IMG/VR virus record: IMGVR_UViG_2706796243_000001
DNA length: 64,000 nucleotides
Source: a virus
Taxonomy: Duplodnaviria; Heunggongvirae; Uroviricota; Caudoviricetes
Reading direction: 5' to 3' (one strand)
Within the stretch, counting starts at the first letter, position 1, and every line of letters begins with the position of its first letter. Both the position numbers and the translations under genes were made by a program. Positions 3,283-10,200 of the stretch are shown piece after piece. Under the pieces are notes generated by a model, which was not told where the DNA came from, did not search any database, and saw only the letters and a program-made list of their open reading frames with translations.

Positions 3283-3302
3283 AGCCGGGGACGCGCCCCG
3301 GC
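3283..3302 (+). repeat. PeSL stem-loop GCCGGGG-ACGC-CCCCGGC
   Basis: Perfect GC-rich inverted repeat in the 5' leader of the next ORF. Confidence 0.7.
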
Positions 3303-3322
3303 ACTAACGAGAGGTAAACAAA

Positions 3323-3562
3323 ATGGAAACATTATTGATTGACAATGACGGGTCTTTGTTGGCGGAAGTTACGGCGATTGACGCGCCTTTGTGGTGGCAA
3401 CAAAAGGGGCTAACCAAAACCCGATCCGGGTATGGGACCAAGATCCCTACACAATGGAAAGTTAATTTCCAGGGGCGTGATCGTCGGGTATACGTTGATC
3501 AATATAGTAACGCCGGACACACTTATATAATTGTGAAAGGTCAAAAAATAACTGTAAGATAA
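3323..3562 (+). CDS. hypothetical protein (79 aa)
   Basis: GAGAGGTAAACAAAATG RBS/start. Confidence 0.5.
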   Translation: METLLIDNDGSLLAEVTAIDAPLWWQQKGLTKTRSGYGTKIPTQWKVNFQGRDRRVYVDQYSNAGHTYIIVKGQKITVR

Positions 3563-3565
3563 TTG

Positions 3566-3595
3566 TTGACGCTGGCTAATGTGTGGGGTTATAAT
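3566..3595 (+). promoter_or_regulatory. sigma70-like promoter TTGACG-18-TATAAT
   Basis: Consensus hexamers upstream of the 3647 start. Confidence 0.55.
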
Positions 3596-3646
3596 CTCCA
3601 CACATTGACAAGCGAAACAAATCAACCACACAAACGAGGTTACACC

Positions 3647-3979
3647 ATGAAAAACTATTTCAATTCTCGCGCCCTTGCCCGTACTGCTGCAAAAGCCAAC
3701 GGCGGAAAAGTGATCGACAACGGCACCGCCGCGCCTGCTGGTAAACGCTGGCAGGTTATCCCCGGCGTTATGGTGGAAGCGATCCAGGACACCGCCGATC
3801 AACGTGCTGCAATGGAAAGCGCCCCGGCCCTGGTTGTTACTCTGGAAATTAAAGCGGGTTACCGTAACCGCCAGGCGGCGCGGGTCTCCTATGTACACGA
3901 CGCAAACGGCAAGCCGATCCCGGTAACCCATAAGCGATCCCAGATCGCCGCACGTTTAGCGGCGCATATGGCCCGATAA
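3647..3979 (+). CDS. hypothetical protein (110 aa; start trimmed to ATG 3647)
   Basis: ATG preceded by ACGAGGT, downstream of the promoter at 3566; the upstream part of the track ORF overlaps that promoter. Confidence 0.5.
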
Positions 3980-3987
3980 AAAATAAT

Positions 3988-4018
3988 TTGACAAGCGCCG
4001 GGAGACTGGCGCATAATA
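3988..4018 (+). promoter_or_regulatory. sigma70-like promoter TTGACA-18-CATAAT overlapping a GCGCC/GGCGC hairpin
   Basis: Hexamers plus inverted repeat GCGCCgggagactGGCGC. Confidence 0.45.
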
Positions 4019-4047
4019 CCCAGACCAAAAGAAAGCAGGTAAACGAA

Positions 4048-4398
4048 ATGGAAAACATGATCGAGATTTTCAAAAAAGCAGTAGAAAACAAAACCGCAAT
4101 TTTAAATTTTCATTCTCTTGACTTTACAGATATGTACGGTAATACATATTTTGTTTATGAGCTTTCGTTCACTACCCCGGAGATCGACACCTGGCCGACG
4201 CTGTACAAGTCGCGGGATCTGCGTTATGGTTACGGTTCCCACGCTTTACAAGTTGCAATGAAAGATCTTTCCACTATGACCGGGATAAAATCAGAATGGG
4301 GCCACCTGGATCGCTGGGCTAGTGAGAACGGCTTAAAAATCAACGTCACCCAAGAAACAGACAAGCGCAAAAAAGATTTAAAAAACTTCATCGCATAG
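4048..4398 (+). CDS. hypothetical protein (116 aa; start trimmed to ATG 4048)
   Basis: AGCAGGTAAACGAAATG RBS/start. Confidence 0.5.
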
Positions 4399-4399
4399 C

Positions 4400-4428
4400 T
4401 TGCAAACCATCGGCGGATCGGTTACATT
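4400..4428 (+). promoter_or_regulatory. PeSL-type promoter TTGCAA-17(..CGGATCGGT)-TACATT
   Basis: Same architecture as the promoters at 3247 and 8473. Confidence 0.5.
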
Positions 4429-4437
4429 ATTAATCAA

Positions 4438-4456
4438 GGCGGGAGAGGTTCCCGCC
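4438..4456 (+). repeat. PeSL stem-loop GGCGGGAG-AGG-TTCCCGCC
   Basis: Inverted repeat immediately after the promoter and before AAAGGTAAAGAAAATG. Confidence 0.65.
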
Positions 4457-4476
4457 AGACTGAAAAGGTAAAGAAA

Positions 4477-4875
4477 ATGGCAAAGTTTAAAACATCTATC
4501 AATCTGTATGACGCTGTAAACCGCCTGGCCTCATTGTCACGCACGAACCAAACCGGGGATTTTTTCGTTGTTGTTGATTCCTTTGATTTTGGTCGCGATG
4601 TTAACGGAAACACGATCAACAAATACCGCGCCACGCTTCACCGTGGGGATCTGGTATCCGTCCAAAATGGTTACACTGGTTTCGGTGTGCTGGTCCTGGA
4701 GTCGCCCCGTCGCCGGGAACAATCACACAACGAAGGGCAAAGCGCAGCGCTTTACTGGCTTGAAAAAATCGGTTATGATCTGGCTTATGAATCAATGACC
4801 GAAGCGCCCCACACTAAAAAGCGCGCTTATCGCCATGTGTACCGGGTAACTAACAATTATTTAAAGGCGGTGTGA
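4477..4875 (+). CDS. hypothetical protein (132 aa)
   Basis: AAAAGGTAAAGAAAATG RBS/start. Confidence 0.55.
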   Translation: MAKFKTSINLYDAVNRLASLSRTNQTGDFFVVVDSFDFGRDVNGNTINKYRATLHRGDLVSVQNGYTGFGVLVLESPRRREQSHNEGQSAALYWLEKIGYDLAYESMTEAPHTKKRAYRHVYRVTNNYLKAV

Positions 4876-4876
4876 A

Positions 4877-8464: not shown

Positions 8465-8472
8465 AAAAAAGC

Positions 8473-8501
8473 TTGCAAGCCAGGCGCGGATCGGTTAATA
8501 T
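8473..8501 (+). promoter_or_regulatory. PeSL-type promoter TTGCAA-17(..CGGATCGGT)-TAATAT
   Basis: Same spacer core as the promoters at 3247 and 4400. Confidence 0.5.
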
Positions 8502-8509
8502 CTTTTTGA

Positions 8510-8531
8510 GGCCGGGGAATGGTTCCCCGGC
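8510..8531 (+). repeat. PeSL stem-loop GGCCGGGGAA-TG-GTTCCCCGGC
   Basis: Perfect inverted repeat. Confidence 0.7.
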
Positions 8532-8552
8532 AAGCCGGAAAGGTAAACAAAA

Positions 8553-8942
8553 ATGCAAAATTTCATCACTATCAGCAATAATGACAAACTGCAATCTTTG
8601 ATCGGTATCTTAAACGATGTTTCGCCGTTTATCGTTAAAAATCTTTATGCACATTTGAAAAATGTTAAGCCCGCTATCTGGTCTGCATATTGCCACGACC
8701 AGGACGAAAGCGCGGCGGCGTACATGCTCGAAATGTTAAAGGATAGTATGCAATTTTGTTTATCTCAAAGCGTTATTAATGAAGTTGATAGCCGTTTATC
8801 TTTGGCTATGGAATATCAAGCGCAAGCGGTGTATAATCAGTTAGACATTGAAGAGCAGCAAGATCAAGACTTATTCTGGGATCGTGCTGATGCTCAAAGC
8901 GCCTTTGATGACCGTTTAGCAATGTATGCTAACGAATACTAA
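8553..8942 (+). CDS. hypothetical protein (129 aa)
   Basis: GGAAAGGTAAACAAAAATG. Confidence 0.5.
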   Translation: MQNFITISNNDKLQSLIGILNDVSPFIVKNLYAHLKNVKPAIWSAYCHDQDESAAAYMLEMLKDSMQFCLSQSVINEVDSRLSLAMEYQAQAVYNQLDIEEQQDQDLFWDRADAQSAFDDRLAMYANEY

Positions 8943-8951
8943 ACAAAACAA

Positions 8952-8970
8952 GGCCGGGGACATCCCCGGC
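8952..8970 (+). repeat. PeSL stem-loop GGCCGGGG-ACAT-CCCCGGC
   Basis: Perfect inverted repeat with no T-run. Confidence 0.65.
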
Positions 8971-8992
8971 ATAATCTGAAAGGTAAATTAAA

Positions 8993-9217
8993 ATGATTAA
9001 AAATGCAACTGGTCAAACTGAATTTTTACGCAACCTTATTGCAGGTGAAAAATCTGTGTGGTATTGTAAGGATCAAAACGTCGATCCGGAAATGCGGAAA
9101 ATGACCGCCACCGTTTGCAAAGCGAAATTAGGCTTTAAGATCCGCCAATCAAAAGCCCTGATAGTTACCCCGGATTCTATCCCGCAAGCGATCATTATTG
9201 TCGAGCGCATATCATGA
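8993..9217 (+). CDS. hypothetical protein (74 aa)
   Basis: GAAAGGTAAATTAAAATG. Confidence 0.45.
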   Translation: MIKNATGQTEFLRNLIAGEKSVWYCKDQNVDPEMRKMTATVCKAKLGFKIRQSKALIVTPDSIPQAIIIVERIS

Positions 9218-9441
9218 AAAAAGTTATTTTTGACAACAAGAAAAACACCGTTACCGCTCAAAAGGTCGGGGAGTATATCGAACTAACGGATCTGTATAGT
9301 GACGCGCCGATCCGCCTGTCTCCTGAAGAGTATAAAAATAGTGAGCTTGTCAAGCATGTTGTAGCTATGGAATTTGAATTTTTCGAATACCTGGCCGATT
9401 TTGACGATGATTTTAATAGTGATGGGCTTTACGGCGCATAA
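9214..9441 (+). CDS. hypothetical acidic protein (75 aa)
   Basis: ATGA start/stop overlap with the preceding ORF. Confidence 0.45.
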   Translation: MKKVIFDNKKNTVTAQKVGEYIELTDLYSDAPIRLSPEEYKNSELVKHVVAMEFEFFEYLADFDDDFNSDGLYGA

Positions 9442-9458
9442 CCACACAACCAGGACAA

Positions 9459-9941
9459 ATGATCATGAAATATGAAATAACCCCGGAAGATATGAAAGGG
9501 CGCGGCCTGGATAGCGCACGATACACCCTTACAAAGCGTGAAAATCTGCAACTGTTTTCTATCTGCTTTATTCATCCGGACGATCCTGATTTTCAATCCG
9601 ATCCTGTAGAGTTCTGGGCTAGTGGCTGGGACACCGCCTACAGTGAATTGATGGACAATGTAACCACGTTTGAATCTTTCGGCCTGTCAAGTTTTAGCGA
9701 GACGGATCGCCCCCTGGAATGTGAGCAGGTGAGAGCGTGGATCAATCACTACAACACCCTTGATCACCTGGTCTTTATCTTCGGGGAGACAAAAGAAGAG
9801 ATGATTAGAAAAGCGCTTGACTTTAACGATCATTGTGCTTATGTGCTTCGCAAAATGTGCGAAATGGTGGACGCATTGAGGAAGGCGGAAAGTTTCGACG
9901 GCGGATCGGTTTACAGTCAATCAATGCACCGTTACCGATAA
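9459..9941 (+). CDS. hypothetical protein (160 aa)
   Basis: ORF with normal amino-acid composition. Confidence 0.5.
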   Translation: MIMKYEITPEDMKGRGLDSARYTLTKRENLQLFSICFIHPDDPDFQSDPVEFWASGWDTAYSELMDNVTTFESFGLSSFSETDRPLECEQVRAWINHYNTLDHLVFIFGETKEEMIRKALDFNDHCAYVLRKMCEMVDALRKAESFDGGSVYSQSMHRYR

Positions 9942-9974
9942 GGCCAAAATCTTTACAAAACCAGGGCTTGCTTT

Positions 9975-10172
9975 ATGGCTGTTTTGTCAAGTGTTTTTTA
10001 TGGCTGGATTGCCTGCCTTGTACTCAGTGACGCAACGGCCCAGACAGTTAACACCATGATCGACGGCTTGCAATTGGCGTTTTATTGTGTGGTGAAATAT
10101 CACAGATTTAAACGGTTCGACCGTTATGATCTACCGTTCATCATTGCCGGATCACTGGCTATCATGTTGTAA
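9975..10172 (+). CDS. hypothetical membrane protein (65 aa)
   Basis: Two hydrophobic segments; followed by a terminator. Confidence 0.4.
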   Translation: MAVLSSVFYGWIACLVLSDATAQTVNTMIDGLQLAFYCVVKYHRFKRFDRYDLPFIIAGSLAIML

Positions 10173-10176
10173 GTAA

Positions 10177-10200
10177 GGCCGGGAATTGTCCCGGCTTTTG
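10177..10200 (+). terminator. rho-independent terminator (GGCCGGGAAT-TG-TCCCGGC + TTTTG)
   Basis: Hairpin of the PeSL family plus a T-run, closing the plus-strand early block. Confidence 0.65.

Follow-up and report, generated by a model that had tools for sequence, protein, structure and literature searches.

Between the small genes of one phage genome region lie eight short GC-rich hairpins with closely similar stems, and the question is what they are for: elements of the 5' leaders of adjacent mRNAs, transcription terminators, binding sites for a protein, or parts of something larger. They are found in a 64,000-nt stretch of IMG/VR virus record IMGVR_UViG_2706796243_000001 (the window, to whose first letter coordinates refer unless another genome is named). 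We propose, with a probability of roughly 0.7, that they are the stem-loop part of regulatory and recombination cassettes of the kind known from T4-like phages as PeSLs. What carries this reading is the anatomy of the cassettes, their confinement to a block of genes of unknown function, the better pairing of the sense strand, the pairing kept in relatives and the position of gene-swap joints at cassette motifs. From these observations we infer a role of the hairpins in RNA, as attenuators, decay barriers or protection of 5' ends.

The PeSL, or 'promoter-early stem-loop', is known from phi1 and RB49, two T4-like phages (Arbiol et al. 2010, PMC2839356), and PeSLs are also present in PST/T4 and nt-1/KVP40 (Comeau et al. 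2014, PMC4122927). In them a sigma70 promoter preceded by AT-rich DNA is combined with a G-tract/C-tract stem-loop that contains G-T pairs, and the stem-loop takes one of five registers: between the -35 and -10 elements, over the -10, over the -35, upstream of the promoter, or just past the -10 (PMC2839356). PeSLs are bounded by a stop codon and by the Shine–Dalgarno sequence (SD) and ATG, cluster with ORFans in hyperplastic regions, and mediate indels, replacements and mini-circles; a PeSL stem-loop lowered lacZ expression as strongly as the rrnB T1 terminator (PMC2839356). In the literature the term itself gave relevant matches only in work of the Krisch laboratory (Arbiol 2010, Comeau 2014).

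Results

Eight hairpins in one block of small genes

The window corresponds to positions 83746-147745 of Salmonella phage SSE121, i.e. the final 64 kb of its 147,745-bp genome. Positions 3000-10500 are 100% identical to SSE121 (NC_027351.1, 86745-94245) and essentially identical also to Salmonella phage PVP-SE1. Both phages belong to the genus Seunavirus of the Vequintavirinae (rV5-like myoviruses). The rest of the SSE121 genome (147.7 kb) was included for genome-wide counts. The hairpins fall within the following feature.

2640-10198, + strand: block of 21 small genes (2720-10172, by annotation) of unknown function, punctuated by promoter/stem-loop/SD cassettes.

This block is a hyperplastic early region. 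All ten of its proteins that were tested match only PHROGs of unknown function, and none of the ten matched a Pfam family. The genome has 132 + strand hairpin peaks of -12 kcal/mol or lower, and 21 of them fall in this block, which makes up 4.9% of the genome; every intergenic gap of at least 45 nt within the block has a GC-rich hairpin. The GenBank record of PVP-SE1 annotates two promoters and one terminator here; most promoters and hairpins of such early regions are currently unannotated.

All eight hairpins listed in the initial annotation were found, displaced by 1-2 nt or less, and fold stably, with minimum free energies of -14.4 to -20.7 kcal/mol and z scores of -1.9 to -6.2 against dinucleotide shuffles. 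They are all intergenic, and each lies 3-47 nt downstream of a stop codon. The strict pattern GCCGGGG-N2-8-CCCCGGC has 3 matches against 0.00 expected. Since the motif under which the family had been announced was too narrow, we applied a relaxed pattern and a generic hairpin scanner; CCGGG-N3-10-CCCGG has 8 matches in the 64 kb against 0.10 expected, seven of them being the copies already listed. The genome-wide search for the stem that had been suggested found perfect GCCGGG…CCCGGC hairpins confined to positions 3284-10195 of the window, out of 147,745 bp. Random GC palindromes with no enrichment in intergenic leaders, which had been named as the outcome that would count against a family, are thus not what is seen: the copies are intergenic and lie in one 7-kb block only. 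A scan of window positions 1-12000 against Rfam (E≤1) returned a sole match, to a flavivirus hairpin, that is due to chance (22 bits against a gathering score of 40, E=0.98).

The announced motif, GGCCGGGG…CCCCGGCC, is idealised: no copy matches it exactly, and only three have the exact 7-bp core GCCGGGG/CCCCGGC. Three of the eight copies have the stem GCCGGGA/TCCCGG(C/T), the 4438 copy has the different stem GGCGGGA/TCCCGCC, and the stem of the 8090 copy closes with a G.U pair. Loops vary in sequence and in length (3-7 nt), the arms are spaced by 3, 4, 5 or 7 nt, and outer positions are G.T, i.e. not complementary in DNA. There are 0-2 G.U pairs per stem (stems GCCGGGG, GGCGGGA, GGTGGGGCTT, TGTGTGGGG and GCGCCGG). 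The statement that only the copies at 6303 and 10177 carry a T-run was correct (TTTTT within 6298-6325, TTTT within 10175-10198). The tails that follow the copies at 3284, 4438, 7565, 8090, 8511 and 8953 (ACTAACGAG, AGACTGAAA, ACCTGGTAG, ATAATGGGA, AAGCCGGAA and ATAATCTGA, respectively) have no U-run.

Cassettes with the hairpin past the -10 element

The hairpins are parts of larger units of 60-90 bp that run from the stop codon of one small early gene to the start codon of the next. The stop codon lies in an A/T-rich stretch; a sigma70-like promoter (spacer 17-18 nt) comes next, followed by the hairpin, 8-10 variable nucleotides, the SD, 3-5 nt, and the ATG. Promoters were called by a sigma70 consensus score (out of 12) and by conservation. 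The cassettes with the hairpin past the -10 are listed below.

2640-2719, + strand: opening cassette of the block; TTGACG-17-TACTAT, hairpin 2680-2698 (GGGCG…CGCCC, weak) after the -10, SD AGGTAAA at 2709.
3247-3322, + strand: cassette of gene 3323; -35 TTGATC at 3247-3252, 17-nt spacer with GGATCGGT, -10 TATCTT at 3270-3275, hairpin 3284-3302 (GCCGGGG acgcg CCCCGGC), SD AGGTAAA at 3312-3318.
4400-4476, + strand: cassette of gene 4477; -35 TTGCAA, -10 TACATT at 4423-4428, hairpin 4438-4456 (GGCGGGAG agg TTCCCGCC), SD at 4466.
7526-7603, + strand: cassette of gene 7604; TTGACA-17-AATAAT, hairpin 7565-7585 (GGCCGGGAG cgg TTCCCGGTC, two G.U pairs), SD GAGGTGA at 7594.
8052-8131, + strand: cassette of gene 8132; TTGACT-17-TAAAGT, hairpin 8090-8110 (GGCCGGGG atcgc CCCCGGTC, one G.U pair), SD at 8120.
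8473-8552, + strand: cassette of gene 8553; TTGCAA-17-TAATAT with GGATCGGT in the spacer, hairpin 8511-8531 (GCCGGGGAA tgg TTCCCCGGC), SD at 8541.

Six cassette promoters in the block score 9-11 (7526 scores 11 and is annotated in the PVP-SE1 record; 8052 scores 9), and three (3247, 4400 and 8473) score 8. The latter three have in common a conserved 47-nt block that includes GGATCGGT immediately ahead of the -10. Gene 7736-8077 has its stop codon within reach of the 8052 cassette, whose -10 overlaps it. The 2640 cassette is 75% identical to the 4438 cassette over 48 nt (repeat D9), and a repeat finder on its own recovers the promoter, hairpin and SD blocks as repeat families (D2-D9). The hairpin at 7565 is unchanged across eight genomes.

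According to the initial annotation, all six copies without a T-run sit between a promoter and a ribosome-binding site. This is so for five of them (3284, 4438, 7565, 8090 and 8511), while the copy at 8953 has no credible promoter. In the five, the stem begins 8-10 nt past the -10 and ends 8-9 nt ahead of the SD, which is AGGTAAA in four and GAGGTGA ahead of gene 7604. If transcription starts at the usual position, about 2-4 unpaired nucleotides would precede the stem in each of the five. A search for literature on transcriptomes or start sites of Vequintavirinae found nothing usable. Folding of the predicted leaders, which had been proposed as a check, placed the hairpin at the 5' end and left the SD and ATG unpaired in five out of six.

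Only in the remaining leader, that of gene 7604, does the predicted fold close the ribosome site. There, right after the 7565 hairpin, a second small hairpin at 7586-7600 (CACCU gguag AGGUG) pairs the SD.

The region is also rich in GATC. Window positions 256-12255 have 34-44 sites per 4 kb, about twice the density elsewhere in the genome (~19), and positions 2500-10500 contain 94 sites against 31 expected from base composition. GATC occurs within GGATCGGT ahead of the -10 in three cassettes (spacers 3266-3273, 4419-4426 and 8492-8499), and a PeSL spacer of RB49 also contains GGATCGG. The genes of the Salmonella phage include two for DNA methyltransferases, and CTAG is nearly absent genome-wide (40 sites against 566 expected).

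Sister hairpins across the -10 or within the promoter spacer

Three further cassettes of the block place a hairpin elsewhere with respect to the promoter.

3566-3607, + strand: sister cassette with the -10 as loop; TTGACG-18-TATAAT, hairpin 3577-3607 (TAATGTGTGGGG ttataat CTCCACACATTG).
3988-4017, + strand: sister cassette with a spacer-filling hairpin; TTGACA-18-CATAAT, hairpin 3995-4012 (GCGCCGG gaga CTGGCGC, i.e. TTGACAA-GCGCCGGgagaCTGGCGC-ATAAT).
5066-5104, + strand: sister cassette with the -10 as loop; TTGACT-17-TAAGAT, hairpin 5079-5104 (GGTGGGGCTT taagat AAGCCCTACC).

Thus, three registers are present in the window: past the -10 (six cassettes), across the -10 (two) and in the spacer (one). 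The initial annotation had viewed the hairpins specifically as leader elements, a view that these equivalents in the block and in relatives, which span the -10 or fill the spacer, do not bear out. As the hairpins that span the -10 or fill the spacer are absent from the transcript of their own promoter, any RNA role they have must be exerted on read-through RNA.

Pair conservation was taken from anchored comparisons of orthologues and not from a covariance model; in a MAFFT alignment of 20 hairpin-SD segments the stems were out of register, so the alignment was not used for such a model. In relatives, the 3577 hairpin differs by a single two-sided change (G-C to C-G) and by several wobble changes, all of which keep the pairing. 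The 5079 hairpin has five variants among relatives, all paired, including a two-sided change from G-C to A-U. In total, orthologues of the -10-spanning and spacer hairpins show two two-sided changes and at least five wobble-mediated one-sided changes, with no disruptive change.

The stems are longer on the sense strand than on the - strand because of their G.U pairs. Among 125 unique, mutually related hairpin segments from eight genomes, 73 were more stable as the + strand and 42 as the - strand (binomial p=0.005), a modest asymmetry. Our conclusion is that selection acts on the hairpins as RNA or as single-stranded nucleic acid of the sense strand. We also conclude that what they share is presence in rightward read-through transcripts just past each cistron, and not a place in the 5' leader.

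Gene exchange at cassette motifs

We compared the homologous region of seven Seunavirus relatives (GEC_vB_MG, EspYZU15, SPLA5a, NINP13076, EC152, GAP31 and 4MG), mapped the alignment break-points and checked the joints base by base. The gene content of the block varies among the seven. All of the ~25 break-points lie at gene boundaries, many of them on cassette motifs: at hairpin edges (8530, 8953 and 10171-10174), at the SD/ATG (3320-3329, 8130, 8560 and 8982) and within a promoter (4416-4431). Cassettes are alignable more often than genes.

Several exchanges can be followed in detail. Gene 3323-3562 is replaced by two different genes, with the left joint right after AGGTAAA (3320-3329), and the 76-nt 3247 cassette is at least 95% conserved in SPLA5a, EC152, GAP31 and 4MG despite three different genes downstream. 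One alternative gene, the same in SPLA5a, EspYZU15, NINP13076 and 4MG, replaces gene 8553-8942, and its joints occupy one of two sets of cassette positions, depending on the phage: in the first three the left joint is at about the last bases of the 3' hairpin arm (8530) and the right joint at the SD (8982), in 4MG they are at the ATG (8560) and at the 5' hairpin edge (8953). In EspYZU15, SPLA5a and NINP13076 the incoming gene brings another hairpin, GCCCCGG ttcg CCGGGGT/C.

EC152, GAP31 and 4MG have another promoter and a GCCGGGA/TCCCGGC hairpin upstream of gene 4477, a duplicated 4438-type cassette flanking an inserted gene, and an additional gene directly past the SD of the 8090 cassette. 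In EspYZU15 and NINP13076 the 8090 hairpin is swapped for a hairpin of the 4438 type, and in EspYZU15 a 27-nt copy of the phage's own 4438 hairpin sits at the 8090 site. Similarity of GAP31 and 4MG to SSE121 resumes at the 5' arm of the terminator at 10175. One joint in the window marks a deletion.

9965-9974, + strand: deletion joint, 10-bp microhomology GGCTTGCTTT.

Here a ~2-kb block of about five genes, present in GEC_vB_MG, EspYZU15, SPLA5a and EC152, is missing from SSE121 and PVP-SE1, and in the longer genomes both copies of GGCTTGCTTT are on or beside hairpin arms. The suggestion that the copies spread by recombination is therefore supported by the repeat families of promoter, hairpin and SD, by the 27-nt hairpin copy in EspYZU15 and by swap joints at hairpin edges.

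Terminator copies and an intercistronic copy

Three of the eight hairpins are not part of a promoter cassette.

6298-6325, + strand: rho-independent terminator; GAAAGGCCGGGA taat TCCCGGCTTTTT with core GCCGGGA/TCCCGGC, then TTTTT.
8953-8970, + strand: intercistronic hairpin; GCCGGGG acat CCCCGGC, 11 nt past the stop of gene 8553-8942 and 10 nt ahead of the SD at 8981.
10175-10198, + strand: rho-independent terminator closing the block; AAGGCCGGGA attg TCCCGGCTTT with core GCCGGGA/TCCCGGC, then TTTT.

The two copies with T-runs had been taken for terminators, and the one at 10177 is so annotated in the PVP-SE1 record. The terminator at 6298 (ΔG -19.6, z -6.2), which is present in all relatives, lies 3 nt past the stop of gene 6092-6295 and is followed by a 344-nt non-coding gap; the one at 10175 also lies 3 nt past a stop codon, with a long non-coding gap after it. 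Because of their T-runs and the long non-coding gaps that follow, we regard both as ordinary terminators closing two gene blocks. The best promoter candidate for the 8953 copy, TTAGCA-18-TAAACA, scores 7/12, has no T at position 6 of the -10 and is not credible; this copy is thus an intercistronic hairpin.

The non-coding stretches past the two T-run terminators (6327-6500 and 10304-10480) are paralogous, with ~65% identity over ~180 nt and a 28-nt core, TATGCAGAAAAGTGAATTTAAGGAGATC, that is 93% identical. This core follows the terminator also in Seunavirus relatives and, in degenerate form, in a Mydovirus. It might be a small RNA or a regulatory site.

Similar units in other phages

In a blastn search, one cassette returned 52 records, which are Vequintavirinae only plus one unverified record, and it detected no sequence homology to T4-like PeSLs. 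Pattern scans of IMG/VR (hairpin plus SD, and promoters with a hairpin in the spacer) found mainly Vequintavirinae-like genomes of 140-153 kb, together with some unrelated T-run terminators and shorter unclassified contigs. In the Mydovirus Seu621 a stem GCCGGGGA-N4-TCCCCGGC occurs 7-8 nt past two promoters and, with a T-run, also as a terminator. In the Certrevirus CR8, another member of the Vequintavirinae, about eight promoters follow the scheme TTGAC-[GGGGCC-N4-GGCCCC or GCCGGGA-cggt-TCCCGGC]-ATAAT, and rV5 has G/C-tract hairpins past stop codons and past promoters.

Outside the Vequintavirinae, the RB49 ORF193-212 region contains TTGACA-GGGGATC…ATCCCC-TATACT as well as stem-loops across the -10, and in its 211/210 intergenic sequence no U-run follows the stem-loop. 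No report of PeSL-like cassettes in rV5-like phages was found in the literature, the PVP-SE1 genome paper (J Virol 2011) being outside that search.

Three observations on these phages stand apart. The arrangement in Cronobacter phage CR8 (300-7100) is unusually regular, with a GC hairpin as the entire -35/-10 spacer in about eight early promoters, e.g. TTGACGGGGCCaacgttaGGCCCCATAAT. In rV5, ORF167 (6142-6414) is annotated as similar to an RB49 hypothetical protein, which hints at small early genes common to both groups. The unclassified 55-kb IMG/VR contig 3300025847_000001 has two copies (703-737 and 2007-2041) of another module, …GGCTAGCCATAGGCAACGC-GCCGGGGAAAGGCCCCGGC-ATGAGAGAAAGGTAAACAGATG, so that a similar hairpin-plus-SD unit may exist outside large Vequintavirinae-like genomes.

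Neighbouring regions

A second + strand region of small genes (window 55860-64000, genome 1-5000) has tRNA genes and AGGAG ribosome sites, and the cassette family was not found there. Upstream of the block, positions 1800-2008 contain three tandem repeats of 67-75 nt that are 70-81% identical, each with internal A/T-rich palindromes. Their structure is conserved in relatives, and they are annotated as an open reading frame only in PVP-SE1 (gp202). They might be iterons or another non-coding element.

Discussion

How the cassettes may work

As parts of PeSL-type cassettes, the hairpins would act on RNA that reads through from upstream promoters, in which one would form from a few to ~47 nt past each stop codon. 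There it may attenuate or pause transcription and block 3' exonucleases, by analogy with the reduction of lacZ expression by a PeSL and with the RB49 211/210 sequence, in which the stem-loop has no U-run after it. Addition of a U-run, as at 6298 and 10175, would make the hairpin a full terminator that closes a gene block. The five copies past a -10 would, in addition, be the 5'-terminal structure of their own mRNA. mRNAs with a 5' hairpin are protected from RppH and RNase E, and the five copies may likewise hinder entry of these enzymes while leaving the SD, 8-9 nt downstream, unpaired. The near-identical stems could have arisen by cassette duplication and ectopic recombination, with short conserved patches (the stem, the SD/ATG) providing homology for inserting, deleting or replacing the genes in between. 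The initial annotation, which proposed attenuators or stability elements and recombinational copying, is plausible in both respects; it missed the larger composite cassettes of the PeSL type.

A number of points weigh against this reading. The five copies without a U-run that follow a promoter lie in their own transcripts, and strong termination by them is therefore unlikely. The promoters are predicted from consensus and conservation, and those at 3247, 4400 and 8473 score just 8/12. Cassettes are only weakly better conserved than coding sequence in distant relatives (~88% against 84%), with no difference in close ones, and joints at gene boundaries are also expected from selection for intact genes alone. 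The strand asymmetry is only supportive, as the 125 segments are not phylogenetically independent. Stems of the GCCGGG class scarcely vary, with nearly no point covariation in the eight copies. Finally, the cassettes and the PeSLs of T4-like phages are related in kind, not in descent.

Alternative explanations

It is possible that the six copies without a T-run are dedicated 5'-leader elements, acting mainly on the mRNA of the adjacent promoter as a stabiliser against RppH and RNase E or as an insulator of the ribosome site. The geometry fits this: in five copies the stem lies 8-10 nt past the -10 with ~2-4 unpaired 5' nucleotides predicted, the folded leaders have the hairpin at the 5' end and an open SD/ATG in five of six, and the spacing between stem and SD is 8-10 nt although the sequence in between varies. 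T4 Srd stimulates RNase E, and such an activity would make 5' protection useful. The rV5 protein gp11 has been termed a probable homologue of T4 Srd (PMC3606486). However, the fixed spacing could be mere compaction, as short leaders leave little room; the 8953 copy has no promoter; the same stem serves two terminators; and the equivalents in the block, in CR8 and in RB49 lie within or across the promoter, with the 5' arm outside their own RNA, and nevertheless keep G.U-tolerant pairing. We consider this explanation unlikely. Still less probable is that all eight are terminators, the six copies without a U-run being non-canonical intrinsic ones and each gene relying on its own promoter. A PeSL stem-loop did cut expression of downstream lacZ as much as rrnB T1 (PMC2839356), the RB49 intergenic region also lacks a U-run after its stem-loop, all copies lie 3-47 nt past a stop codon, and their stems match the two true terminators in stability. 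But U-runs are found only at the two block ends, before long non-coding gaps, and never between genes, the tails of the others (ACUAACGAG, AGACUGAAA, etc.) are not U-rich, five copies lie past their own predicted start and would abort their own mRNA at ~+25, and termination at 8953 would deprive gene 8993 of any promoter.

The initial annotation saw in the conserved stem a hint of a sequence-specific partner. As a DNA operator or RNA target, GCCGGGG…CCCCGGC at +1 to +20 would bind a dimeric repressor or an RNA-binding regulator; the stem sequence is indeed conserved across genera (Seunavirus, Mydovirus), the position is typical of repressor operators, and one gene product of the phage is annotated as a transcriptional regulator (window 46633-46947). 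However, the half-sites are spaced by loops of 3, 4, 5 and 7 nt, too variable for a rigid dimer, G.T positions break the DNA palindrome yet keep the RNA pairing, and the unconserved loops argue against loop-specific RNA recognition. Moreover, sister cassettes have unrelated stems (GGCGGGA, GCCCCGG, GGGGCC, GGGGCG and GCGCCGG), and the stem recurs in terminators, without a promoter at 8953 and inside the promoter spacers of CR8. A partner is thus not indicated; the operator of a dimeric regulator was rejected on the variable arm spacing and the G.T asymmetry, and the explanation as a whole appears very improbable. The thought that the hairpins are functionless, chance GC-rich palindromes has nothing in its favour beyond their short length (6-9 bp). 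It was rejected on the pattern statistics (8 observed against 0.1 expected), on confinement of the all-intergenic copies to 7 of 148 kb and on the fixed distances from the -10 and the SD; conservation in at least eight genomes and a second genus speaks against it as well, and we regard its probability as negligible. A bolder idea, to which we give slim odds, is that the GCCGGGG hairpin, extruded from DNA or formed in RNA, is the recognition site of a structure- or sequence-specific phage factor. Candidates for this factor would be endonuclease VII or one of the genome's many HNH endonucleases. The cassettes would then not be just passive homology: the factor could actively excise and insert single-gene cassettes (as mini-circles), an integron-like system of Vequintavirinae, or could co-regulate all hairpin-tagged early mRNAs as a regulon.

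Implications

If the assignment to PeSL-type cassettes is confirmed, the PeSL design, in which a strong early promoter, a short G/C-tract hairpin and a ribosome site form both transcription punctuation and a portable recombination joint, is not peculiar to T4-like phages and recurs in unrelated large myoviruses, the Vequintavirinae. This would bear on the turnover (gain and loss) of host-takeover genes in therapeutic phages, of which PVP-SE1 is an example, and on how the early regions of such phages are annotated. As compact insulated expression units the cassettes are also of potential use in synthetic biology. The questions they raise (attenuator or stabiliser, passive or active recombination) are the same as those raised for PeSLs in 2010-2014, with no new one added.

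Comparison with known systems

The eight hairpins resemble rho-independent terminators in their GC-rich stems of 7-12 bp, 4-nt loops and position just past stop codons, with a U-run at 6298-6325 and 10175-10198. The other six differ in having no U-rich tail, and five of these lie past the predicted start of a promoter. Stabilising 5'-terminal stem-loops, those of the ompA 5' untranslated region and the T7 phi10 leader, were reportedly described by Emory, Bouvet and Belasco in 1992 and in later work on RppH and RNase E. The leader-type copies are like them in that a stable hairpin is predicted ~2-4 nt from the 5' end of the mRNA, with an open ribosome site downstream of it, in phage messages that are highly expressed. 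They are unlike them in that the 5' ends are here predicted and that the same hairpins also occur where a 5'-terminal position is impossible. REP (repetitive extragenic palindromic) and BIME (bacterial interspersed mosaic element) sequences, intercistronic hairpins of enterobacteria that are said to go back to Newbury et al. in 1987, are likewise repeated, GC-rich and without a U-run, with possible roles in protecting upstream mRNA from 3' exonucleases and as recombination substrates. REPs are, however, imperfect palindromes of ~35 nt with a consensus of their own; they are longer than the hairpins here, chromosomal and uncoupled from promoters and SD sites, and there is no apparent sequence relationship.

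The closest likeness is to PeSLs. Common to both are a sigma70-like early promoter (here by consensus) with AT-rich upstream DNA, a short G-tract/C-tract stem-loop with G-T pairs in several registers (spacer, over the -10, past the -10), bounds formed by a stop codon and the SD/ATG, a plastic region where they cluster with small genes of unknown function, and joints of indels and replacements in the cassettes; the layout with a hairpin in the spacer is the same in RB49, at window positions 3988-4017 and in the CR8 promoters. There are also differences. The commonest register here is past the -10, in phi1 it is the spacer and across the -10; the SD is AGGTAAA here and GGAGAA there; and here the same stem, given a U-run, doubles as the terminator of a gene block. 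Promoter and terminator activity and mini-circles have been demonstrated for the PeSLs of phi1/RB49; in the present cassettes promoters and terminators are predicted. PeSLs belong to Straboviridae and the cassettes to Vequintavirinae (Seunavirus), outside the T4-like occurrence that defines the class. Given this other lineage and the lack of detectable sequence homology, the cassettes are therefore best described as elements of the PeSL kind that occur in a new lineage, and not as homologues of the PeSL.

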